From Candidatus Margulisiibacteriota bacterium (GTDB lineage Bacteria; Margulisbacteria; WOR-1; JAHJIW01), in assembly GCA_018823125.1 (NCBI GenBank), contig JAHJIW010000010.1, positions 93,396-157,395 on the forward strand: 64,000 nt of DNA, in the 5' to 3' direction. How positions within the stretch are numbered: position 1 is the first letter of the stretch; each line of letters opens with the position of its first letter. The position numbers were made by a program, and so were the translations under genes. The notes under the pieces were generated by a model. The model was not told the origin of the DNA and ran no database searches. It was given only the letters and a program-made list of their open reading frames with translations. Positions 9,246-29,946 of this stretch are shown piece after piece.

Positions 9246-11027
9246 TTATTGTTCAATCCGGCGCTGCAGCGCATTATATTCTTCTTTAATTTCTTTGGGT
9301 AAATCTTTGCCAAACTTCTTAAAAAACTCGCCTATATTCTCCAGTTCTTTTTTCCATTCTTTTTTATCAACGTGCAGTAGCTGCTGCATAGTTTTTGGAT
9401 CGATATCCAGACCGGTTAAATCTAAGGCATCCGCAGTGGGCACATAGCCAATCGGGGTCTTTTTAGCTTTTCCTTTCCCCTTGCACCGAGCAATAACCCA
9501 CTCTAACACTCTCAAGTTATCACCAAAGCCTGGCCAGATGAAATTGCCGTCTTTATCCTGCTTAAACCAGTTCACGTGGAAAATCTTGGGAGCTTGTTTC
9601 ATTTTTTTACCCATCTTTAACCAGTGTTTAAAATAATCTCCCATGTTATAACCGCAGAAAGGAAGCATCGCCATCGGATCGCGACGGATTTCGCCCTGTT
9701 TACCGTATTGCGCCGCCGTACGCTCAGAAGCCATGGTGGCGCCAACGTAAACCCCGTGCTGCCAGTTTAATGATTCGAAAACTAAAGGTGCTAAGCGGGC
9801 TCTTCTGCCACCAAAAATTATTGCACTAATCGGCACCCCGTGCGGCTGGTTAACTCGATTAGAAACCGTTGGACACTGCTTTAATGGTGCAGTGAAGCGT
9901 GCATTGGGATGAGCTCCATGAACCATTTTTCCTTCTTCGTCCAGCATTCCCGGTCTCCACGCATTACCTTTCCAATCAGTCCCTTCTTCTGGAATATCCC
10001 CGTCCCCACCTTCCCACCAAACGGTTCCGTCCTTTTTTAAAAGAACATTAGTAAAAATTGAATTCTTTTTAACCGAAGCAACTGCATTTGGATTAGTTTT
10101 AGAATTAGTACCAGGCGCCACGCCAAAAAATCCGTTCTCCGGATTAACTGCCCACAGCCTTCCATCCACATCCATTTTCATCCAGGCAATGTCATCCCCT
10201 ACTGTCCAAATCCTATACCCTTTTGCCTTTAGGCCATCCGGCGGAACTAACATGGCCAAATTGGTTTTACCACAGGCACTCGGAAAAGCCGCGGCAATAT
10301 ATTCGATATTTCCGTATGGATCTTCAATTCCCATGATCAGCATGTGTTCGGCCATCCAGTTTTCTTTAGCCGCTAAGTAACTTCCGATACGCAGCGATAA
10401 ACATTTTTTCCCGAGCAACACGTTGCCGCCGTAACCCGAACCAACACTCCAGATAGTATTATCTTCAGGGAAATGCATAATCCAGCGCTTATCAATATCG
10501 AGATCCGCTTTACCGTGCAAACATTTCGTAAACTCGCCGTCTTTTCCTAATACATCCAACACTTCCTGTCCGGCGCGGGTCATAATCAACATATTTAGCA
10601 CAACATAGATACTATCGGTCAACTCAACCCCGATTTTACTGAAAGGCGAACCAACCGGACCCATGGAGAACGGGATCACGTACATGGTGTGGCCTTTCAT
10701 TGAACCTTTAAATATCGCTCGGGCTTTAGCATAAGCATCCTTAGGCAGCATCCAATGGTTGGTAGGCCCCGCATCTCTCTTTTTAGAAGTACAAATTAAT
10801 GTTAGTTTTTCGGTGCGGGCCACATCATTTAAGGCGGTGCGGTGATAAAAACATCCCGGCATTTGTTTCTGATTAAGTTCAATTATTTCGCCGGCTTTAC
10901 AGGCTTCCTTTTCCAGTTGGTGTTTTTGCTTTTCTGATCCGTCGATCCAAACGATTTTGTCAGGCTTACAAAGCTCGGCACATTTTTTTACCCAGGCATT
11001 TAATTTCTTATTTTTTGATTGTGTCAT
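9246..11027 (-). CDS. pckG: GTP-dependent phosphoenolpyruvate carboxykinase
   Basis: GSGYGGN, KKCLSLR, FPSACGKTN, VGDDIAW, NPENGFFGVAPGT, HPNARF. Confidence 0.96.
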   Translation of the reverse strand: MTQSKNKKLNAWVKKCAELCKPDKIVWIDGSEKQKHQLEKEACKAGEIIELNQKQMPGCFYHRTALNDVARTEKLTLICTSKKRDAGPTNHWMLPKDAYAKARAIFKGSMKGHTMYVIPFSMGPVGSPFSKIGVELTDSIYVVLNMLIMTRAGQEVLDVLGKDGEFTKCLHGKADLDIDKRWIMHFPEDNTIWSVGSGYGGNVLLGKKCLSLRIGSYLAAKENWMAEHMLIMGIEDPYGNIEYIAAAFPSACGKTNLAMLVPPDGLKAKGYRIWTVGDDIAWMKMDVDGRLWAVNPENGFFGVAPGTNSKTNPNAVASVKKNSIFTNVLLKKDGTVWWEGGDGDIPEEGTDWKGNAWRPGMLDEEGKMVHGAHPNARFTAPLKQCPTVSNRVNQPHGVPISAIIFGGRRARLAPLVFESLNWQHGVYVGATMASERTAAQYGKQGEIRRDPMAMLPFCGYNMGDYFKHWLKMGKKMKQAPKIFHVNWFKQDKDGNFIWPGFGDNLRVLEWVIARCKGKGKAKKTPIGYVPTADALDLTGLDIDPKTMQQLLHVDKKEWKKELENIGEFFKKFGKDLPKEIKEEYNALQRRIEQ

Positions 11028-11222: not shown

Positions 11223-14200
11223 TCAATAATAATCTTGCAGCGCTTTTACTTTAAATCCTTTTTTCTTAGTGGCTTCTAAACCACTGACCGTAGCCTGCGC
11301 TCCGGATAATGTAGTAATGATCGGAACCATGTGCATAATTGCCCCGGAACGAATTTTAGTTTCATCAACTTTGGTCCTTTTATCCCCCGGCGTATTTACA
11401 ATAATATGCACTTCATTATTTTTTATCAAATCCAGCACATCCGGACGCCCTTCCCCAATTTTAGCCACCACTTCGATTTCTAATCCATTTTTGCGCAGGA
11501 CTTCGCCGGTACCTTCGGTGGTAACAATCTTATAGCCCAAGGCATCAAAGCTTTTTGCAATGCTGACGATCTTTCTTTTATCCCGGTCATTAACCGAAAT
11601 GAAAACTTTGCCTTCCAAGGGAAGTTTTTGGCCGGCACCAATCTGAGCTTTAATATAAGCTACCCCCAGATCCGGGTCAATTCCCATGACTTCTCCAGTA
11701 GATTTCATTTCCGGACCTAAAATGGGGTCTACTCCCGGAAAACGGTTGAACGGAAAGACTGCTTCTTTAACCGAAAAGTGCTCGGGAACAACTTCTTTAT
11801 CCACTCCGAGCTCTTTCAACGTTTTTCCCAGCATGACTTTAGTTGCGATATTGGCCCACGAAACCCCAGTTGCTTTAGCAATAAAAGGAACGGTTCGCGA
11901 AGCACGCGGGTTTACTTCGAGAACATATAATTTTGAACCCTTGACCGCATATTGAATATTCATCAAACCTTTTACCTTTAATTCTTTAGCCAAAGCATGG
12001 GTAGCTTTGCGGATTTCGTTTAATACAGTTTTACTGAGAGAAAAAGTTGGGATGGCACAGGCTGAATCACCGGAATGGATTCCGGCTTCTTCGATATGCT
12101 CCATAATTCCACAAATCATCGAATCTTCACCATCCGCCACGCAATCAACGTCAACCTCAATTGCATCTTCCAAAAACTTATCAACTAAGATCGGTCGATC
12201 AGGTGAGGCCACCACTGCTTTTTGCATATATTCTTCCAGGTCAACTTCATCGTAAACAATCATCATCGCCCGGCCGCCCAATACGTAAGAAGGCCGCACC
12301 ACTACCGGATAGCCAATCCGGTCGGCAACCGTTTTTGCTTCTTCAAAAGAAATGGCGGTATCATTTTCGGGCTGAGTTAGTTTTAATTTTTTCAATAACT
12401 TTTGAAAACGTTTGCGGTCTTCAGCCATATCAATGGAATCAACTGAGGTTCCCAAAATGGGAACTCCCGCTTCCTGTAAGGAATGCGCCAAATTAAGCGG
12501 GGTTTGTCCGCCAAACTGAACAATTACTCCTTCCGGTTTTTCGGCTTCTACAATGGTTAATACGTCTTCGCGGGTTAGCGGCTCGAAGTACAAACGGTCG
12601 GAAGTATCAAAGTCGGTGGATACCGTTTCGGGATTTGAATTTACCATGATCGCTTCCAGTCCTTCTTCTTTAATCGCGTAAGAGGCATGGACACAGCAGT
12701 AATCAAATTCAATTCCCTGACCAATACGATTTGGTCCACCGCCTAAAACCATAATTTTTCGTTTGTTGCTTGCCCGGCACTCATTTTTTCCCTTATCAAA
12801 AGTCGAATAAAAATATGGTTTTTCGGGACTAACCTCTCCGCCGCAAGTATCAACCAGCTTGTACCCGGCGGTAATGTCTTTTTCTTTTCTTAGGTTATAT
12901 ACTTCAATTTCGCTGGACTTGGTCAAATGCGCAATCTGAATATCAGAAAAGCCCATCCCCTTAGCTTCGGCCAGGAGTTTTAAGGGTAATTCTTTTAGTT
13001 TGTATTTAACCACTTTTCCCTCCATTTCAACGATCTGGCGCATTTGATCCACAAACCAGACATCAATCTTAGAATGATCATAGATTTCCTGATTGGTCAT
13101 ACCTTTCTTGACTGCATAGCGCACCCAGAAAATCCGGTCCGGACCCGGAATGGTTAATTTTTGCTTAATTAATTCAATATCTTCAGAAAGTTCAGGTGGA
13201 ACATCGTTGCCATCGGCACCCAAGCCATAACGTTTATATTCAAGCGAACGAATTCCTTTTTGTAAGGATTCTTTAAAGGTACGGCCAATCGACATCGCCT
13301 CACCGACCGCCTTCATGGAAGTGGTTAAAGTTTGGTCCGCGCCCGGAAACTTTTCAAAGGCAAAGCGGCATACCTTAAACACGCAGTAATCAACCGTAGG
13401 CTCAAAGAAAGTATAAGTTTTGCCGGTAACCTGGTTGACTATTTCATCTAAAGATAATCCAATCGCCAGTTTTGCGGCGACCCGCGCAATCGGAAAACCG
13501 GTGGCCTTGGAAGCCAAAGCCGATGATCGGGATACCCGCGGATTTATTTCAATAACTCTAATTTCCCCGTTAACCGGACTGACAGCAAATTGAATATTGG
13601 TTCCACCGCCGTTAATTCCGGTGGCCCGGATAATTTTTTTACACCAGTTTTCCAGGTTCATAAATTCTTCGGTAGTTAAACTTTGCGCCGGAGCAACTAC
13701 AATTGAATCACCGGTATGAATTCCCATGGCATCCACATTTTCCATCGAAGTAACAATGATCACGTTATCTTTACAGTCGCGAATAACTTCAAATTCAACC
13801 TCTTTCCATCCTAAAACCGATTCTTCAACCAAAACCTGTTTTAAGGGTGAAACTTCCAGCGCATATTCCACGGCTTTCTTTAATTCTTCAACGTTATATA
13901 CGCAGGCACCACCCGCTCCACCCATGGTAAAGGCCGGCCGCAAAATCAGCGGAAAACCCAGTTTTTCTCCGAGCGCCATGCCTTCATCAACTGAAGTGGC
14001 AATGCCGGATTCCGGCACGCCTAAACCAATACTTTTCATAGTATCTTTAAATTTTTGGCGGTCTTCCGCACGTTCAATGGCTTCAGCATCGGCGCCAATA
14101 ACTTCTACGCCGTATTTCTTTAAAATTCCGGCACGGGATAAAAAGAAGCCCATATTTAATCCGGTTTGTCCGCCTAAAGTTGAAAGCAGTGCATCCGGTT

Positions 14201-14444
14201 TTTCTTTTGCAATGATCTTTTCGATAAAGATCGGATCCAGCGGTTCGATGTAGGTACGATCCGCCATTCCCGGATCGGTCATGATGGTGGCCGGATTAGA
14301 ATTAACCAGCACCGTCTCATACCCCTCCTCCCGCAAAGCCTTACAGGCTTGCGACCCCGAATAATCAAACTCACAGGCCTGCCCAATTACAATTGGTCCG
14401 GAACTTATGATTAATATCTTTTTAATGTCGGTTCGTTTTGGCAT
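11223..14444 (-). CDS. carB: carbamoyl-phosphate synthase large subunit
   Basis: MPKRTDIKKILI, GQACEFDYSG, duplicated ATP-grasp domains, C-terminal MGS domain. Confidence 0.97.
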   Translation of the reverse strand: MPKRTDIKKILIISSGPIVIGQACEFDYSGSQACKALREEGYETVLVNSNPATIMTDPGMADRTYIEPLDPIFIEKIIAKEKPDALLSTLGGQTGLNMGFFLSRAGILKKYGVEVIGADAEAIERAEDRQKFKDTMKSIGLGVPESGIATSVDEGMALGEKLGFPLILRPAFTMGGAGGACVYNVEELKKAVEYALEVSPLKQVLVEESVLGWKEVEFEVIRDCKDNVIIVTSMENVDAMGIHTGDSIVVAPAQSLTTEEFMNLENWCKKIIRATGINGGGTNIQFAVSPVNGEIRVIEINPRVSRSSALASKATGFPIARVAAKLAIGLSLDEIVNQVTGKTYTFFEPTVDYCVFKVCRFAFEKFPGADQTLTTSMKAVGEAMSIGRTFKESLQKGIRSLEYKRYGLGADGNDVPPELSEDIELIKQKLTIPGPDRIFWVRYAVKKGMTNQEIYDHSKIDVWFVDQMRQIVEMEGKVVKYKLKELPLKLLAEAKGMGFSDIQIAHLTKSSEIEVYNLRKEKDITAGYKLVDTCGGEVSPEKPYFYSTFDKGKNECRASNKRKIMVLGGGPNRIGQGIEFDYCCVHASYAIKEEGLEAIMVNSNPETVSTDFDTSDRLYFEPLTREDVLTIVEAEKPEGVIVQFGGQTPLNLAHSLQEAGVPILGTSVDSIDMAEDRKRFQKLLKKLKLTQPENDTAISFEEAKTVADRIGYPVVVRPSYVLGGRAMMIVYDEVDLEEYMQKAVVASPDRPILVDKFLEDAIEVDVDCVADGEDSMICGIMEHIEEAGIHSGDSACAIPTFSLSKTVLNEIRKATHALAKELKVKGLMNIQYAVKGSKLYVLEVNPRASRTVPFIAKATGVSWANIATKVMLGKTLKELGVDKEVVPEHFSVKEAVFPFNRFPGVDPILGPEMKSTGEVMGIDPDLGVAYIKAQIGAGQKLPLEGKVFISVNDRDKRKIVSIAKSFDALGYKIVTTEGTGEVLRKNGLEIEVVAKIGEGRPDVLDLIKNNEVHIIVNTPGDKRTKVDETKIRSGAIMHMVPIITTLSGAQATVSGLEATKKKGFKVKALQDYY

Positions 14445-14457
14445 TTTTTATTCCCCC

Positions 14458-15474
14458 CTATACATATTTATAATTAGGATCCAGTTTTGAGCGCTCATCA
14501 ATCGGGAAATACAGGGTGCCTACGCATTGCCCGTCTTTGGTTTGAAATTTTTCAATAGTTTTATCATTTAAATTTTCATGGACAACCTTGACCTTAGTTG
14601 ATACCTGATCAACGCCAAACGAGTGATTCTGCATCGAGATCTCTCCGTTGCCGGTTTTCGGATCAACCACCGGATAATTTACCCCGTGATGACCAACTTT
14701 CATTTTAGAAACCGTGCACCCTAATGCCAGCGCCAAAACACAGGCACCGTTTTGAATTCCGTAAATTGGTATTTCTCCAATTAATTTTTTTACTTCTTCA
14801 ACCGTTTTGGTTAGCCTGGTCGGATCTCCTGGTCCGGAAGAAATCACAACCTGGGAAGGTTTTTTAGCTAATATATCTTCAGCGGTAGTATTATATGAAA
14901 CGACCGCCGCATCCGGATATTTCGCCAGCGTACTATTATTGACTCCCAAATTAATGATTATGGTTTTTGCCTTTGCATCCTGGGACTTAATCTTTAAATG
15001 CTGTACTTCTTTGACTAAATCCGGCACTGCATAGGCTTTGGCTTTTTTTACCAGGCAGTCTTTATCAAAATCGGTAGTAGAAACTATTCCCCGCATCTCC
15101 CCGTTATCGCGGATATATACGGTCACCGCCTGGGTATCAATGCCTTCAATCCCAATCACATTATTTTTTTTCATAAAGTCAGCCAGTGATTCCTTGGCCT
15201 GCCAGTTGCTGTAAATTCTGCTGTTTTCTTTTACAATTAAAGCCGACGCATGGGTTTTATTGGATTCATTACAACGATCATTAATCCCGTAATTTCCAAT
15301 CAATGGGTAACCCATCGACACCAGCTTTCCCCGGTAGGCCGGATCAGTTAATATCTCCTGATAGCCCACTACTTGCGTATTAAATACCACTTCACCCGCC
15401 ACTTCCCCTTCGGCCCCAAAAGAAGTTCCCTTAAAAGTTGTTCCATCTTCTAAAACTAAAATCGCTTTTTTCAT
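14458..15474 (-). CDS. carA: carbamoyl-phosphate synthase small subunit homologue with a degenerate glutaminase site
   Basis: N-terminal domain AILVLEDG, GEVVFNT, GYQEILTDP, YPLIGNYG; canonical GICLGHQ reads GIQNGAC and QYHPE reads LYFPI; start placed at ATG 15474 after AGGGGG. Confidence 0.88.
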   Translation of the reverse strand: MKKAILVLEDGTTFKGTSFGAEGEVAGEVVFNTQVVGYQEILTDPAYRGKLVSMGYPLIGNYGINDRCNESNKTHASALIVKENSRIYSNWQAKESLADFMKKNNVIGIEGIDTQAVTVYIRDNGEMRGIVSTTDFDKDCLVKKAKAYAVPDLVKEVQHLKIKSQDAKAKTIIINLGVNNSTLAKYPDAAVVSYNTTAEDILAKKPSQVVISSGPGDPTRLTKTVEEVKKLIGEIPIYGIQNGACVLALALGCTVSKMKVGHHGVNYPVVDPKTGNGEISMQNHSFGVDQVSTKVKVVHENLNDKTIEKFQTKDGQCVGTLYFPIDERSKLDPNYKYV

Positions 15475-15504
15475 CTTTTTCCGCCCCCTTATAGTAAAAT
15501 GGCC

Positions 15505-15532
15505 AAAAAAAAAGACGTCCTGCGACGTCTTT
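15505..15532 (-). terminator. intrinsic terminator upstream of carA
   Basis: AAAGACGTC-GCAG-GACGTCTTT stem with a run of 9 U, ending about 30 nt before the carA ATG. Confidence 0.8.
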
Positions 15533-15551
15533 GTCAATCTCTAAACCGTTA
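15524..15551 (-). promoter_or_regulatory. candidate ANTAR-binding twin-hairpin RNA site
   Basis: P2 is GAC-AAAGAC-GUC (hexaloop with A1/G4, C-G closing pair) and overlaps the terminator 5' arm; weak P1 UA-ACGGUU-UA lies 6 nt upstream. Confidence 0.6.
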
Positions 15552-15579
15552 TTTTACCAAATTTTTAACCTTAAGTCAA
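15551..15579 (-). promoter_or_regulatory. sigma70 promoter of carAB
   Basis: TTGACT-N17-TAAAAT. Confidence 0.65.
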
Positions 15580-15581
15580 TT

Positions 15582-16010
15582 TCAGACTTCATAAGCCCCT
15601 AAAATCGATTCTGCAACCTGGCGCATTGATTTTCTCCTGCTCATACTCTGTTCCTGCAGCTTTCGATAAGCTTCGGTAGGCCGGATATCAAATTGCGCCA
15701 TCAATATCTCCTTGGCTCGCTCAATAATTTTGCGGTCTTCGAGCTGACGCTGAAGCTCTTTTACCTGCTTTTTAAGCTTAGCATTTTCTAGCTCTAGAAC
15801 GCGAAAATTCGCCTTCTTTTGCTTAGCTAAACTATAGCAGGTTGCCCGGGCATGCCCCTCCATTTTGACCATATTATTTTTAATCAAAGGTATCATCAGC
15901 TGATTAAGCCGGGCGCGAGATATACCCAGTCGCTCCACCAGCTGCCGGCTAAAAGTATACGGATACTCTCTTAAAATATTTATTATTTCTTCCTGGCGGG
16001 AGTTTAACAT
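15582..16010 (-). CDS. winged-HTH + coiled-coil + ANTAR domain regulator
   Basis: N-terminal HTH (RQLVERLGISRARLNQL...ARATCYSL); C-terminal RKIIERAKEILM...EAYRKLQEQSMSRRKSMRQVAESIL ANTAR signature. Confidence 0.85.
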   Translation of the reverse strand: MLNSRQEEIINILREYPYTFSRQLVERLGISRARLNQLMIPLIKNNMVKMEGHARATCYSLAKQKKANFRVLELENAKLKKQVKELQRQLEDRKIIERAKEILMAQFDIRPTEAYRKLQEQSMSRRKSMRQVAESILGAYEV

Positions 16011-16016
16011 AGGGGC

Positions 16017-16046
16017 ATTATAACAAAATCGTCAAGGAATCGTCAA
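16017..16046 (-). promoter_or_regulatory. leaderless sigma70 promoter containing a TTGACGATT direct repeat
   Basis: TTGACG-N18-TATAAT with TGn extension, 6 nt to ATG; TTGACGATT at 16038-16046 and 16027-16035. Confidence 0.65.
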
Positions 16047-16112: not shown

Positions 16113-16922
16113 TTAGCCCCGTTTGTGTCTTGTAACATCCCTTACCGTAGCAATAAAAGCCTTGGGTCGCCCAAAAGAATCCTTGATTAAGGCGGCATTC
16201 AATTCCCCGAGAAAGCGTGACCCGTCTTTTCTAAGCAGCGTATAGGTTAAGTTACGCACCAACCCCTCCTCTAAGGTTCTTTCCAGATTTTTTTTAGCTC
16301 TGGCATGGTCCTCTGGAGCAATAAGATCAAAAGCACTTCTACCAATCAGCTCATCAGCACTGCTATAACCATGTAATTTATAGGTTTGCGCAGAAACCTC
16401 AATCACGTGTCCCTCCAGATCAGTAACCGTAATCGCTTCCGGAGAGGTTTTAAGCATGGAGCGATATAATTCTTCAGATTCGGATAACACTTTTTCCGCC
16501 TGCTTGCGCTCTGTAATGTCCATTAACGATAAAAAATAACCAATGATATTTCCTTGTTCGTCTTTGCGGGCTAAAGTAGAAATACTAAAATCAATTATAT
16601 TCCCGCTTTTGGTAACCAGGGTAGATTCCCGGTTTTTCACAAAGCCTTTTTTAAGGGTTTCTTTTTGTACTTCTTCAATCACCCGGGTTTCCGGAAAACA
16701 TTCCGCCAGACTTTGACCAATAATAACGTCGGGGGAATAGCCGAGCAGTTCGGGCAGAGTTTCGTCTACATCTAAAATTACCCCCAGCGGATTAACGTAA
16801 GCCATCGGAATCGGCAGGAATTTCCACATGTCACGAATGTAGCTTTCCAGATCGTAAACATCCTGCTCATATTTTGGGGGCCGATGACGATTATTAAATC
16901 CAGGAAACTTTATATTCATCAT
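16113..16922 (-). CDS. tandem PAS-PAC protein without an output domain
   Basis: Two PAS/PAC repeats (LGYSPDVIIGQSL...LMDITERKQAE; LHGYSSADELIGRS...VRDVTRHK); start uncertain because it overlaps the upstream gene. Confidence 0.75.
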   Translation of the reverse strand: MMNIKFPGFNNRHRPPKYEQDVYDLESYIRDMWKFLPIPMAYVNPLGVILDVDETLPELLGYSPDVIIGQSLAECFPETRVIEEVQKETLKKGFVKNRESTLVTKSGNIIDFSISTLARKDEQGNIIGYFLSLMDITERKQAEKVLSESEELYRSMLKTSPEAITVTDLEGHVIEVSAQTYKLHGYSSADELIGRSAFDLIAPEDHARAKKNLERTLEEGLVRNLTYTLLRKDGSRFLGELNAALIKDSFGRPKAFIATVRDVTRHKRG

Positions 16923-17490
16923 ACGGATCTCCTCGATAAGAACATTTAATTTGCTGACTGCTTACTTCCTTATCCGGAAGTGCAAATTGAATAATGCGGG
17001 AAAAATAACCTTCGATATATTTACAAAAAACCGGCAAAAACTTAATGCCCTCCAACCGGATGTTAACATACTTTTTCTCTTCACTATAATCTGCAATCAC
17101 GAGCTCACCGGCAGAATAGTGTTTGGGCCAATAGAGAGGCGCGGACTTGACAGTCTGCTCTAAGCTGATGAAATAACGCATTAGAATTTTTACCATAAAA
17201 GAAAACTTGGGCGCCATATTGCCCATCGCCTTCACTGCGGCATCATCCCAATTAAAAGTATCCTTAATCACCATTAAGGAAAGACCTCGCAACCCCATCG
17301 GATACCACCCCATAGCCTTAACCTTTTCAAATTCGATCGGATATCCGAGCTGCTTTAAGTTTTCTTCTACTTTTTTTAAGCCTTCTTCCCCATACTTAAT
17401 TTTAAGGTAGGTCGCATCCGTCTGGAAAACTACCCCGCGGACCTCACCCTTCATTTTCATTATATCGTCGGCTTCTTTTTTGGTAAGCAT
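16894..17490 (-). CDS. hypothetical protein, V4R / DUF2378-like
   Basis: GEVRGVVF, WYPMG, YWPKHYSAGEL, YIEGYF, KCSYRGDPYDEYKVSW resembles V4R-type ligand-binding folds; GAGG RBS before ATG 17490. Confidence 0.55.
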   Translation of the reverse strand: MLTKKEADDIMKMKGEVRGVVFQTDATYLKIKYGEEGLKKVEENLKQLGYPIEFEKVKAMGWYPMGLRGLSLMVIKDTFNWDDAAVKAMGNMAPKFSFMVKILMRYFISLEQTVKSAPLYWPKHYSAGELVIADYSEEKKYVNIRLEGIKFLPVFCKYIEGYFSRIIQFALPDKEVSSQQIKCSYRGDPYDEYKVSWI

Positions 17491-17568
17491 AGCAGACACC
17501 TCTATAGCAGCAAAATTATCACATATAACAATTATGTCAAGGATAAAAGCGAGAAAAACCTATTAAAT

Positions 17569-19142
<1,574 letters not shown>

Positions 19143-19154
19143 AAACTTTCCTCC

Positions 19155-20144
19155 TTAGCGTTTGATAAGCTCGTTAAATTTCTTTAGGCGGTTATACTCC
19201 ACCAGCGTCACTAAAGCTTTACTTTCGGTTTTAATGCCACATTCTTCGCAGGCCGCCACCGGATTAAGACCTCCCGGAACTACCAGCCCAACTTTTTCTA
19301 TCCCAACCGGCATACCTAAAACCGGCTCTTCTTCCTTACCTATATATAAGGCCCCGCCAAAACCAGCGGCTTCCGCTTTTTCTAACACTGACTCGACATC
19401 CTGCTTGGATACCGCTGGAATCTCGCGCAGTCCGGCTAATATTTTCCCCGAACCCTTAACGGCATCTCTGACACTGGTCATTTTACTTCTGATAAAAATT
19501 TCATGGGGATCCAAGGTTGACCCCGAATATCTAATTAAATCCGTAAAACGCAACGGTTTTCCCTTTTCGATCTGTAAAATTCCACCAAACTTAGAGTCCA
19601 GCGGAATCGAATGTTTTAATAATATGCCATTCAAGTTAATCGTGCATAAGGAGCCAAAACAAATTTTTCCCTGCGGAACAACCATGTCCCCTACTTCTTC
19701 GCCGGCTTCCGCCACCAATACCCGGTCGCCCATCCCCAATTTTTTCTTAAAAACATCCCGCATGATTTTCAAAGCGCCTTTAAAATCATTTTTATTAAAT
19801 AAAGAAATATTTAATATTACTTTCCCACTTTTTGTATTGAGATCGAAATCCATTAAATAAGCTTTGGATTCAATGCGCGAGCTAACCAAACCTACTTTTT
19901 CTGATACCCAAGCATTAGCTAGTTCTTCTTTTCCCATTTTAGTGATGGTTCTCCCTTCTTTCCAGGTTGACTCAGTTAGCTTTTGTTCATCCATAATTTT
20001 TAAGTGATAGCGCACCGCACGCTCCGTTAAATCGATCCCAAATTCCTTTAGTCGATCAGAAATATCCTTAGACCCCACCGGCTCACTCGACTCAGCGATA
20101 ATTCTTAAAATTGCGCTGGTTTTTCTTTCCATGTCTGCTGTCAT
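19155..20144 (-). CDS. nrpR: NrpR family nitrogen repressor (wHTH + one NrpR/DUF128 domain)
   Basis: ERAVRYHLKIMDE HTH, GRTITKMGKEEL, CTINLNGILLKHSIP, GGLNPVAA; start placed at ATG 20144 after AAGGAG. Confidence 0.88.
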   Translation of the reverse strand: MTADMERKTSAILRIIAESSEPVGSKDISDRLKEFGIDLTERAVRYHLKIMDEQKLTESTWKEGRTITKMGKEELANAWVSEKVGLVSSRIESKAYLMDFDLNTKSGKVILNISLFNKNDFKGALKIMRDVFKKKLGMGDRVLVAEAGEEVGDMVVPQGKICFGSLCTINLNGILLKHSIPLDSKFGGILQIEKGKPLRFTDLIRYSGSTLDPHEIFIRSKMTSVRDAVKGSGKILAGLREIPAVSKQDVESVLEKAEAAGFGGALYIGKEEEPVLGMPVGIEKVGLVVPGGLNPVAACEECGIKTESKALVTLVEYNRLKKFNELIKR

Positions 20145-20153
20145 AAATTCTCC

Positions 20154-20210
20154 TTGACTTACGGCAATCACTTACCGTATAATCATAACTAAGTTTACTG
20201 CAATTGTAAA
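20154..20210. promoter_or_regulatory. overlapping divergent nrpR/gdhA promoters with a TACGG-N10-CCGTA inverted repeat
   Basis: Plus strand TTGACT(20154)-N18-TATAAT(20178); minus strand TTTACA(20210)-N17-TATGAT(20187); inverted repeat at 20160-20179. Confidence 0.65.
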
Positions 20211-20266
20211 GAAATTATTTTTTTCGAGAGGAGGATGCCGTAAAGATCATAAGTTCCAAGTGATAA

Positions 20267-21610
<1,344 letters not shown>

Positions 21611-29268: not shown

Positions 29269-29946
29269 TTACTTTTTTAATCTTTTTTTTATTTTCTCGC
29301 TAGTTAATTCTCTTAGCGCGTCGGCGGCAATCCATTTTGCGGATTTTGAATCAAGTTTTTTTATTTCTCGCGCAGTTACAATGGCTTTTTTATTTAAGTT
29401 TTTGTTTTTTTTGCCAATGGTACGCAGGGCCCAATTGACCGATTTTTTTACGTAATGGCGCCCGTCAGTAGCTTCTTTTTTTATAATTGATAAATATTTA
29501 ATAAAAAGCGCGTCACTGGCAGATTTATCATGAACAACTAAGGTAGACATTAATGCAAAGCCAGCTCTTTTGGCAAATTCCTCTTTGCGTTTAGTCCATT
29601 CTCGTACTTTTTTATGAGCTAGGTCAGTTTTGCGAAACAAATGCATGCAAGCATTGTCGCAAACCGCCCAGTTATCAAAATCTTTAACCCATTTTTCTAG
29701 TAATTTATCATCAACTTTTTTTGGATCCACAATCAGCGGAGCTAAAATTTTAGTTTCGTAAGCGCCAAACTTCCAAAGTTTTTCGGCAAGCTTTTGATCA
29801 ATGCCAATTTTGGCGGCCATAGCTCGAAGTTCGGGAAGCGATACACCATACACCTTTTTGCTAACGATTCCATAGCGGGCCATACCGTCAATACATTCTT
29901 GATTAGTTAAAGATTCGAGTTTTTTGATGATTGATTTGAATTGCAT
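29269..29946 (-). CDS. DNA alkylation repair (AlkD-like) protein
   Basis: YGVSLPELR, NWAVCD, YVKKSVNWALRTIGK, WIAADALREL. Confidence 0.85.
   Translation of the reverse strand: MQFKSIIKKLESLTNQECIDGMARYGIVSKKVYGVSLPELRAMAAKIGIDQKLAEKLWKFGAYETKILAPLIVDPKKVDDKLLEKWVKDFDNWAVCDNACMHLFRKTDLAHKKVREWTKRKEEFAKRAGFALMSTLVVHDKSASDALFIKYLSIIKKEATDGRHYVKKSVNWALRTIGKKNKNLNKKAIVTAREIKKLDSKSAKWIAADALRELTSEKIKKRLKK

Follow-up and report, generated by a model that had tools for sequence, protein, structure and literature searches.

A sensor-less winged-helix ANTAR protein and its candidate antitermination switch at the carAB genes of Margulisbacteria

The DNA studied here is a window of 64,000 nucleotides (nt) of a Candidatus Margulisiibacteriota bacterium (contig JAHJIW010000010.1, positions 93,396-157,395), which was compared with about 12 kb from each of its relatives. 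We consider a small regulator gene lying directly upstream of carA and carB, the genes for the small and large subunits of carbamoyl-phosphate synthetase (CPSase), together with the signals around it. The list of open reading frames (ORFs) for the window places all of these on the minus strand. The regulator gene (15582-16010) was identified from the ORF list and from its Pfam ANTAR match, and consists of 142 codons and a stop. It is preceded by a -10 element, TATAAT (16017-16022), found by promoter scan, and by a tandem direct repeat with a period of 11 bp, TTGACGATT-CC-TTGACGATT (16027-16046), which is a candidate operator for a winged helix-turn-helix (wHTH). On the other side of the gene, and starting only 2 nt past its stop codon, is a carA promoter (15551-15579) in which TTGACT and TAAAAT are separated by a 17-nt spacer with a TG-n extension. 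There follow a candidate antiterminator mini-hairpin, GAC-AAAGAC-GUC (15524-15535, in DNA the 12-mer GACAAAGACGTC), supported by its consensus and covariation, and an intrinsic terminator detected by terminator scan and folding, AAAGACGTC-GCAG-GACGTCTTT with a T-run (15505-15532). A Shine-Dalgarno sequence lies between the terminator and carA (14458-15474, with its ATG at 15474), which has Pfam matches to CPSase_sm_chain and GATase. The next gene is carB (11223-14444, 1073 amino acids), identified from the ORF list and 79-82% identical to the full-length carB genes that follow carA in related loci; it is co-transcribed with carA, the first regulated gene.

The only domain of the regulator that scores above its Pfam cut-off is ANTAR, at residues 85-137 (E 1.7e-19; 69.7 bits against a cut-off of 27.3). 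A match to HTH_24 at residues 3-48 is below threshold in the window protein (17.5 against 21.9 bits), and many homologues have matches to HTH_24, MarR, MarR_2 or IclR-HTH on record. AlphaFold, given 36 homologues as input, produced a model with a mean predicted local distance difference test score (pLDDT) of 87.8. In this model residues 4-61 have the order helix, strand, helix, helix, strand, strand, with helices at 4-15, 21-28 and 32-44 and a β-hairpin at 48-51 and 58-61; residues 32-44 form the recognition helix and 48-61 the wing. The wHTH is minimal (residues 1-61, encoded at 15828-16010), being a bare core in which the dimerisation helices that flank MarR/ArsR-type wHTH domains are absent from the model. 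It is followed by a disordered linker (62-68) and then by a 39-residue helix (69-107), which runs as a coiled coil into the ANTAR three-helix bundle completed by helices 111-125 and 129-141 (residues 69-141, encoded at 15588-15806). Neither the Pfam search nor the model has a REC, GAF, PAS or NIT domain anywhere in the 142 residues. Foldseek matched the N-terminal part to the MarR/ArsR-type proteins ZitR, AdcR, HpaR, HlyU, CadC and CzrA and also to Zalpha domains, and the remainder to EutV. The same division was found when the family profile was compared with the PDB, in which the N-terminal half matched AdcR (E 2.4e-6) and HlyU (4e-4) and the C-terminal half matched EutV (1.5e-10), Rv1626 (1.5e-9), NasR (4.8e-8) and AmiR (2e-4). 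The original prediction, made from the DNA letters of the window, had described the protein as a wHTH, a coiled coil and an ANTAR domain without a sensor, and this architecture is borne out by Pfam, AlphaFold and Foldseek.

The similarity to EutV extends to individual residues. Residue numbers for EutV (Walshe et al., PMC8934654) were placed on the family-profile alignment, whereupon L79, V83, L86 and L90 of the regulator align with the EutV coiled-coil heptad residues L128, I132, L135 and L139, and R93, K94, K100, Y115 and M123 align with the RNA-contact residues R142, K143, K149, Y164 and M172. In EutV, Y164 stacks on G4 of the RNA hexaloop, and M172 is the hexaloop 'plug' (PMC8934654); together with R142 and K149 they make up the set that holds G4, by stacking or coordination, and plugs the loop. 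The five aligned contact residues are invariant or at least 90% conserved among 36 members of the regulator family, and the four heptad residues are likewise invariant or nearly so. E75, N76, L79 and L90 are also invariant; a buried asparagine within the heptad would be typical of parallel dimeric zippers, and the regulator presumably dimerises through its ANTAR-type coiled coil. In the wHTH, the invariant residues R32, R34, Q37, G52, A54, R55 and T57 are those of the recognition helix and the wing. It is worth adding that the wHTH half of the profile also matches large proteins carrying tandem arrays of similar winged helices, found among P0117, P0119, P0120, P0121, P0125 and P0128. The number of matched stretches is 8 in P0117 (581 amino acids), 10 in P0119 (1182 amino acids) and 15 in P0128 (3833 amino acids). 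The repeats of P0117 were confirmed by Pfam as HTH_11/HTH_24, and the best-scoring stretch of P0128 lies further along the profile.

About 93 homologues of the regulator were found, of 138-148 amino acids and 50-69% identity, and all of those with a named source come from Candidatus Margulisiibacteriota or Saganbacteria. The next matches beyond the family are GAF-ANTAR and REC-ANTAR proteins. A search of 1.84 billion representative proteins returned two full-length clusters of the family and fragments; its further short matches proved to be REC-ANTAR proteins or pieces of them. Some seemingly full-length homologues from Omnitrophota and Desulfobacterota (33-36% identity) were likewise rejected, being GAF-ANTAR proteins of 239 amino acids that adjoin glnA. 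NCBIfam has no model for the wHTH-ANTAR family, whose members are labelled in the sources only as 'ANTAR domain-containing protein', and a literature search found no paper on a wHTH-ANTAR protein. The linkage of the family to carAB is strict. In each of 14 genomes found with the protein profile (14/14), carA begins within about 80-130 nt downstream of the regulator and is followed by carB, and the same order is seen in every metagenomic contig that is long enough to tell. Altogether the regulator is directly upstream of carA-carB in 29/29 distinct Margulisbacteria/Saganbacteria loci.

The short stretch between the regulator and carA is equally constant. Promoter, hairpin and terminator are all present in 29/29 distinct leaders. 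The TTGA of the -35, the 17-nt spacing, the TG extension and the TAtAAT of the carA promoter are invariant or nearly so in 29/29 loci, and the promoter is kept even where its -35 falls within coding sequence. The distance from the -10 to the hairpin is 8-23 nt (9-17 in most loci). If the start site is taken to be about 7 nt after the -10, the RNA ahead of the hairpin would measure about 0-16 nt, and 0-10 nt in most loci. In the mini-hairpin a 3-bp stem closes a hexaloop whose first base is A and whose fourth is G (A1 and G4). The consensus of the hairpin over the 29 leaders is G-R-Y / A-R-R-G-R-C / G-Y-Y, which is followed by a loop, a complementary arm and the T-run. Both A1 and G4 are found in 29/29 leaders. 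The last 9 of the 12 nt of the hairpin, in the window and in 29/29 leaders, are also the 5' arm of the terminator; in other words, this arm is made up of the hexaloop and the 3' arm of the mini-hairpin. In the window the terminator has a 9-bp stem (AAAGACGUC/GACGUCUUU), the loop GCAG and nine U in all, three of which are paired in the stem. The terminator scan, the fold and the position of the 12-mer together confirm that, as first proposed, a terminator at 15532-15505 is overlapped by a 3-bp hairpin with an A1/G4 hexaloop. In 29/29 leaders the terminator folds with 7-10 bp and -11.5 to -19.3 kcal/mol, and the mini-hairpin alone with -1 to -3.9 kcal/mol. Given that the terminator is far more stable than the hairpin, transcription is predicted to terminate by default, at about +40, and a protein would be needed to hold the hairpin.

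The key test of the mini-hairpin is whether its 5' trinucleotide, which lies outside the terminator, covaries with its 3' trinucleotide. The stem is paired in 98.9% of cells over the 29 leaders. In the middle of the stem 19 leaders have G-C and 10 have A-U, and no leader has this pair broken; the outer pairs change only to G-U, with one mismatch. None of 500 shuffles (0/500) reached the observed covariation score, and the signal collapses when the registers are slid. On a neighbour-joining tree of the regulators there are at least 7 independent switches between A-U and G-C, and thus the covariation of the middle pair is not a single inherited event. RNAalifold, run on 20 leaders from the stop codon to the T-run, returned the mini-hairpin as its sole consensus structure.

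The element is also specific to these loci, and its occurrence exceeds what chance would give. The 12-mer pattern occurs once in the 64 kb at zero mismatches. With filters off, a covariance model of the element finds a single site in the window (44 bits, E 2e-7), and in 28 related loci it finds exactly one site per locus. There is no further site in 64 kb plus 226 kb of sequence; a 15.6-bit match at 29443 was rejected as lying inside an ORF and forming no hairpin. The model finds no element before 57 carA genes from outside the Margulisbacteria. Nor is there a hairpin/terminator element in the carA leader of one Margulisbacteria metagenome-assembled genome, L305 (JAQVPA010000022, region 1330-1510), which has no regulator gene in the 1.5 kb upstream of carA and whose carA is 64% identical to that of the window. 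L305 thereby serves as a natural negative control. The comparison of the 28 related loci with L305 and the outgroup therefore indicates that element and regulator gene are present or absent as a pair, and none of the 28 loci lacks the hairpin. Genomic linkage, conservation in 29/29 leaders, covariation and the absence in L305 all support the proposal that an ANTAR-type hairpin/terminator switch stands before carAB, and the survey of wHTH-ANTAR genes beside carAB suggested with it gave the uniform result described above.

No Rfam family reaches its gathering threshold anywhere in the window. The sub-threshold matches to the narK RNA and to small RNAs were set aside, as they reflect the hairpin or the terminator only. 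In the case of narK (RF03032; 16.4 bits against a gathering threshold of 43.2), only the 3' 15 nt of the model are matched (CGACAAAGACGUCGC). As an observation in its own right, the window hairpin agrees with 14/15 nt of the narK consensus 3' end (the match region being 15522-15570, minus strand), and AAAGAC and the adjacent stem bases are identical, which suggests that the narK motif may itself end in an ANTAR hexaloop of the NasT/NasR type. A literature search found no paper linking the narK motif to an ANTAR hexaloop. A separate feature of the leaders is a near-identical GC-rich palindrome, located after the T-run and before the carA Shine-Dalgarno sequence in two loci (GCCTGCCTGCCGGCAGGCAGGG in L002 and GCCTGCCTACCGGCAGGCAGGG in L127), and might represent a small repetitive element. 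Other GC-rich insertions occupy the equivalent position in L006 and L123.

The published ANTAR target comprises two hairpins, P1 and P2, each of at least 3 bp and with A1/G4 hexaloops (Ramesh et al. 2012, PMC3369931), and in eut leaders they are joined by a linker of 5-12 nt (PMC3369931). With the mini-hairpin as P2, the original prediction offered UA-ACGGUU-UA (15542-15551) as a weak P1, such that only RNA reading through from the regulator promoter would carry both hairpins. This picture is not upheld. The candidate has a stem of only 2 bp and begins with the final T of the -10, the expected carA start site falls within it, and it is not conserved, leaving it unsupported as a functional element. 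In 15 loci, the 165 nt or so ahead of P2 were scanned for all A..G.. hexaloop hairpins with stems of at least 2 bp. None of the 15 has a hexaloop hairpin of at least 3 bp in the stretch from the -10 to the 12-mer, and L010 alone has a 2-bp hairpin comparable to that of the window. Neither this enumeration nor RNAalifold on 20 leaders revealed anything conserved near P2 that could serve as P1. The scan also brought up a TTG-ATYGCN-CAR hairpin about 150 nt upstream of P2, which lies within the ANTAR coding sequence. In the window it has the form TTG-ATGGCG-CAA (15693-15704, minus strand), a 3-bp stem and hexaloop over the codons L-M-A-Q, and 9/14 relatives have the equivalent TTG/CTG-ATYGCN-CAG. 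It was rejected as an RNA signal, since the Ile/Met-Ala codons of the conserved LIAQF motif dictate both A1 and G4, and it is probably a by-product of coding. Since P1 is not conserved, and the invariant promoter leaves only about 0-16 nt of promoter-proximal RNA, too little to hold it, the conserved target is, as far as the leaders indicate, just one hexaloop, located at the 5' end of the carAB mRNA. The structure of EutV with RNA is compatible with this, in that the ANTAR dimer contacts one hexaloop at a time; Walshe et al. suggested a 'recruitment' role for P1, reduced the minimal motif to one hexaloop and predicted targets of this kind (PMC8934654).

The second conserved site is at the regulator's own promoter, which the promoter scan reads as TTGACG-18-TATAAT with a TG extension. 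Two copies of TTGACGATT, arranged as TTGACGATT-NN-TTGACGATT with the 11-bp period, are present at this promoter in every locus, and in the window the tandem repeat occurs once (16027-16046). The relaxed form TT[GTA]AC[GA]A[TA]-N3-same is found exactly once per locus in 30/30 loci when both strands of 241 kb are searched, and in every case it precedes the regulator ATG by 27-79 nt. Searched in the genome collection, the exact pattern with its 18 specified bases matched within Margulisbacteria only on contigs that bear the regulator; roughly 75 other matches are scattered over unrelated taxa at counts near chance expectation. Two genome-wide scans thus show no wider DNA regulon at the level of exact matches. 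In the window, repeat 1 doubles as the -35 of the regulator promoter. This is the arrangement in most loci, whereas in L119, L121 and L123 the -35 is repeat 2, and in L002 and L082 both repeats are upstream of the -35. The varying register to the -10 argues that the repeat acts as an operator and is not part of the promoter proper. In nearly all of 28 loci only 5-8 nt separate the end of the -10 from the regulator ATG (6 nt in the window), for which reason the regulator mRNA is probably leaderless in almost all loci; no Shine-Dalgarno sequence precedes the ATG in the window or in L001-L014, L081-L085 and L118-L127. Given the invariance of the recognition helix and the wing, we consider the chances to be a little better than even that the wHTH binds the tandem repeat and autoregulates its gene. 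The earlier suggestion that the protein combines DNA and RNA binding gains support from this strictly conserved repeat at the regulator's own promoter, to which binding is predicted. A copy of the operator was sought in the carA promoter and rejected, as that promoter shares only the TTGA of its -35 and, 11 bp further on, a partial TGA. The TGA is found 11 bp after the carA -35 in 16-22 of 29 loci, which is suggestive of a weak second wHTH site (TTGA-N7-YTGA) in that promoter.

Taking these results together, we think it probable on balance that carAB is under the control of a lineage-specific ANTAR antitermination switch whose protein binds DNA as well as RNA. The RNA part of this proposal can be held with greater confidence: it is likely that a dimer of the regulator binds the hexaloop hairpin and prevents formation of the terminator. 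In this mechanism the ANTAR domains of the coiled-coil dimer would clamp the hairpin in the way that EutV holds a single hexaloop, and no upstream recruitment hairpin P1 would be involved. The clamped hairpin would withhold the 5' arm from the terminator, allowing RNA polymerase to read into carA-carB. At the other end of the gene, the N-terminal winged helix would bind TTGACGATT-NN-TTGACGATT in the regulator's core promoter and so autoregulate the leaderless mRNA. Repression would be likelier than activation, because the native -35 and -10 are near consensus. DNA binding would also keep the regulator concentrated beside its RNA target, and the wHTH may in addition touch the weaker TTGA-N7-YTGA arrangement in the carA promoter. 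Because there is no sensor domain and no conserved partner, the output may be set by the abundance of the regulator, or else by some ligand or partner. A further step, which we regard as unlikely but worth stating, is that DNA binding in cis substitutes for P1 and keeps the protein next to the emerging RNA; the tether may be the high-affinity tandem repeat, the weaker carA-promoter site, or both.

Several considerations weigh against this proposal. The evidence is wholly computational, all of the sequences are from uncultured organisms, and the start sites are inferred. No signal input was found for the regulator. In EutV, deletion of P1 or a change in the P1-P2 spacing abolishes induction (PMC3369931; PMC8934654); EutV thus needs P1 in vivo, and a target without P1 is not known to be enough in the time that a moving polymerase allows. 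The invariance of A1 and G4 is not independent evidence for recognition by ANTAR, because both bases also pair in the terminator. The strong operator is about 490 bp upstream of the hairpin DNA and not at the carA promoter, and a parallel coiled-coil dimer would more naturally suit an inverted repeat than a direct one.

The dependence of EutV on P1 also speaks for a canonical dual-hairpin target, in which P1 and P2 are both needed and only readthrough from the regulator promoter is antiterminated. The window does have UA-ACGGUU-UA 6 nt upstream of P2, with a similar 2-bp candidate in L010, and the readthrough RNA must exist, as there is no terminator between the regulator ORF and the leader. 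However, a 2-bp stem is below the published 3-bp minimum, the 15 loci have no hexaloop of at least 3 bp between the -10 and P2, RNAalifold gives P2 only, and the model would make the invariant dedicated carA promoter useless; we judge it very improbable. Only slightly less improbable is that the ANTAR protein acts elsewhere, the hairpin and terminator being under another control, such as a nucleotide-sensitive start-site effect or another RNA-binding protein, or merely constituting the regulator gene's own terminator. The carAB and pyr leaders of other bacteria are controlled by PyrR or by reiterative transcription sensitive to uridine triphosphate (UTP), which provides precedent, and the constraint that the terminator places on A1 and G4 fits this explanation too. 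Against it, a promoter stands upstream of the terminator in 29/29 loci, which makes the terminator an attenuator, and the covarying 5' trinucleotide outside the terminator is explained only by the alternative hairpin. Moreover, the element and the regulator gene co-occur strictly and are both absent in L305 (over the 1.5 kb upstream of carA), the RNA model found no further target in the sequences searched, and a leader of about 40 nt without an Rfam match is too short for a riboswitch.

The two remaining alternatives concern the DNA site. RNA antitermination may operate as proposed, with the repeat being a duplicated -35 or serving another regulator, such as a response regulator of the OmpR/RpaB type; the wHTH would then bind RNA or a partner protein, or only aid dimerisation. 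Sites of the OmpR/PhoB family typically consist of direct repeats that overlap the -35 and have a period of 11 bp (10-11 bp for OmpR/RpaB-type sites), and the cyanobacterial HLR1 motif is similar in form. A symmetric coiled coil fits direct repeats poorly, and minimal wHTH folds such as Zalpha, which is among the Foldseek matches, bind RNA or Z-form nucleic acid. These points are balanced by the finding that, in the loci and genomes examined, the repeat occurs only at the regulator promoter and travels with the gene whatever its upstream neighbour, by the location of the invariant wHTH residues in recognition helix and wing, and by the disordered linker, which would allow tandem binding; we regard this explanation as rather unlikely. 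In the other alternative the regulator is chiefly a repressor bound to DNA, from which the leader hairpin would titrate it as an RNA decoy or ligand, so that carAB transcription feeds back on regulator expression and the protein does not control termination. The DNA site and the RNA site are both conserved, and EutX/Rli55-type RNAs, which sequester EutV (PMC8934654), are a precedent. A decoy would not need to be placed exactly where it competes with the terminator, and yet the hairpin has this placement in all loci, so that we attach hardly any probability to it.

Among known systems, the closest to the antitermination switch proposed here is EutV of the Enterococcus faecalis eut operon (PDB 6WSH, 6WW6). 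Like the regulator, it has an output module of coiled coil plus ANTAR, with the heptad and the RNA-contact residues Y164, M172, R142 and K149 conserved between the two, and in its target, as in the carAB leader, a short stem bears an A1/G4 hexaloop, the 3' side of the hairpin being part of a terminator. It differs in having a phosphorylatable receiver and a kinase partner, whereas the regulator has a wHTH and no kinase partner; in having a target with P1, whereas the carAB leader lacks P1 and has its hairpin at the 5' end of the transcript; and in controlling catabolic (eut) rather than biosynthetic (carAB) genes. NasR/NasT and AmiR share the ANTAR output with the regulator (at the E values for NasR and AmiR given above). 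Ramesh et al. (PMC3369931) noted a nitrogen-metabolism theme in ANTAR regulons, into which a carAB switch fits along with NasR/NasT/AmiR. AmiR resembles the regulator in having no working sensor domain of its own. It is controlled by its partner AmiC, and NasR senses nitrate via a NIT domain, whereas the regulator has no conserved adjoining partner gene; conversely, NasR, NasT and AmiR lack a DNA-binding domain and the regulator has a wHTH.

On the DNA side, the MarR/ArsR-type proteins AdcR, ZitR, HlyU and CadC have their fold and a weak sequence similarity in common with residues 1-61. As in these families, a conserved recognition helix and wing and a site in its own promoter suggest classical autoregulation of the regulator, although it is missing their dimerisation helices and ligand or metal sites, and its candidate operator is a direct repeat and not a palindrome. 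In the form of its promoter the regulator is similar to PhoB/OmpR-type systems, where tandem direct repeats overlap the -35: two 9-bp direct repeats of 11-bp period take up the -35 and spacer of the regulator promoter, and its DNA-binding domain, too, is a winged helix. It differs from them in lacking a receiver domain and in the subtype of its wHTH, and its binding to the repeat is predicted. The pyr operon of Bacillus, which includes pyrAA/pyrAB, is regulated by the RNA-binding protein PyrR, which chooses between a terminator and an alternative hairpin in the leader. PyrR has a phosphoribosyltransferase fold, senses uridine monophosphate or UTP, and stabilises an anti-antiterminator to cause termination, in leaders that are much longer. 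The principle of a choice made in the leader upstream of pyrimidine and carbamoyl-phosphate genes is similar to the one proposed here, with the opposite logic and an unrelated protein. What would be new here, on the reading of the leaders and the protein given above, is an ANTAR antiterminator with a DNA-binding domain and a single promoter-proximal hairpin, dedicated to carAB in one phylum.

The genes further upstream are not part of the conserved unit. The neighbours of the regulator on that side vary, and include UPF0182, Big_5, a radical-SAM protein, a histidine kinase, an RRM protein and a second CPSase with gltBD. In the window there is a nitrogen-regulation cluster upstream of the regulator (16113-21610), which contains a PAS-PAS protein without an output domain (16113-16922), a 201-amino-acid protein with no Pfam or NCBIfam match and a 29-nt overlap with the next gene (16894-17499), PII (17569-17913), Amt (17922-19142), an NrpR homologue (19155-20171) and a divergent gdhA (20282-21610). 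The PAS-PAS protein, PII, Amt and NrpR were considered as conserved partners or as the sensor and rejected, as they are not upstream in relatives; because upstream neighbours differ between loci, they fall outside the conserved unit. None of the genes of the cluster adjoins the regulator in the sequence examined of 14 relatives, and no conserved partner gene was found beside the regulator in the related loci examined. Nowhere in the window is there a copy of GGAA-N6-TTCC, the NrpR operator of methanogen type.

Some relatives carry, just upstream of the regulator, a second carA with a half-length carB of about 544 amino acids (L005, 15-2082; L119, 3195-5908; L121, 3207-5923), adjoined by gltBD in L119 and L121. 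The hairpin/terminator element is not found at the second CPSase in these three loci, and their genomes may therefore have two differently regulated CPSases. On the other side of the unit, a gene for GTP-dependent phosphoenolpyruvate carboxykinase is directly after carB in the window (9246-11027) and in its closest relatives, L119 (10865-12435) and L121 (10901-12435); other relatives have purS/purQ or unrelated genes at this place.

The regulator family breaks two rules of ANTAR regulation throughout its phylum, in having a wHTH in place of a sensor and only the terminator-proximal hexaloop, within about 40 nt. It is thereby a natural test of the 2022 model of ANTAR action by successive binding and a recruitment hairpin, and it raises the question of whether DNA binding in cis, instead of P1, can deliver the protein to the polymerase in time. 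If our proposal is true, one polypeptide would regulate initiation at one promoter and termination at the next. If the cis tether is also true, the same protein would read a DNA site and then, at the same locus, a nascent RNA hairpin a few tens of nt later, and the output of a sensor-less regulator would be set by its partition between DNA and RNA ligands. The module is compact, requiring about 560 bp and a protein of 142 amino acids with sigma-70 consensus promoters. Margulisbacteria are an uncultured sister lineage of the Cyanobacteria, and these results point to a means by which they may control the synthesis of carbamoyl phosphate, the entry to arginine and pyrimidine biosynthesis.

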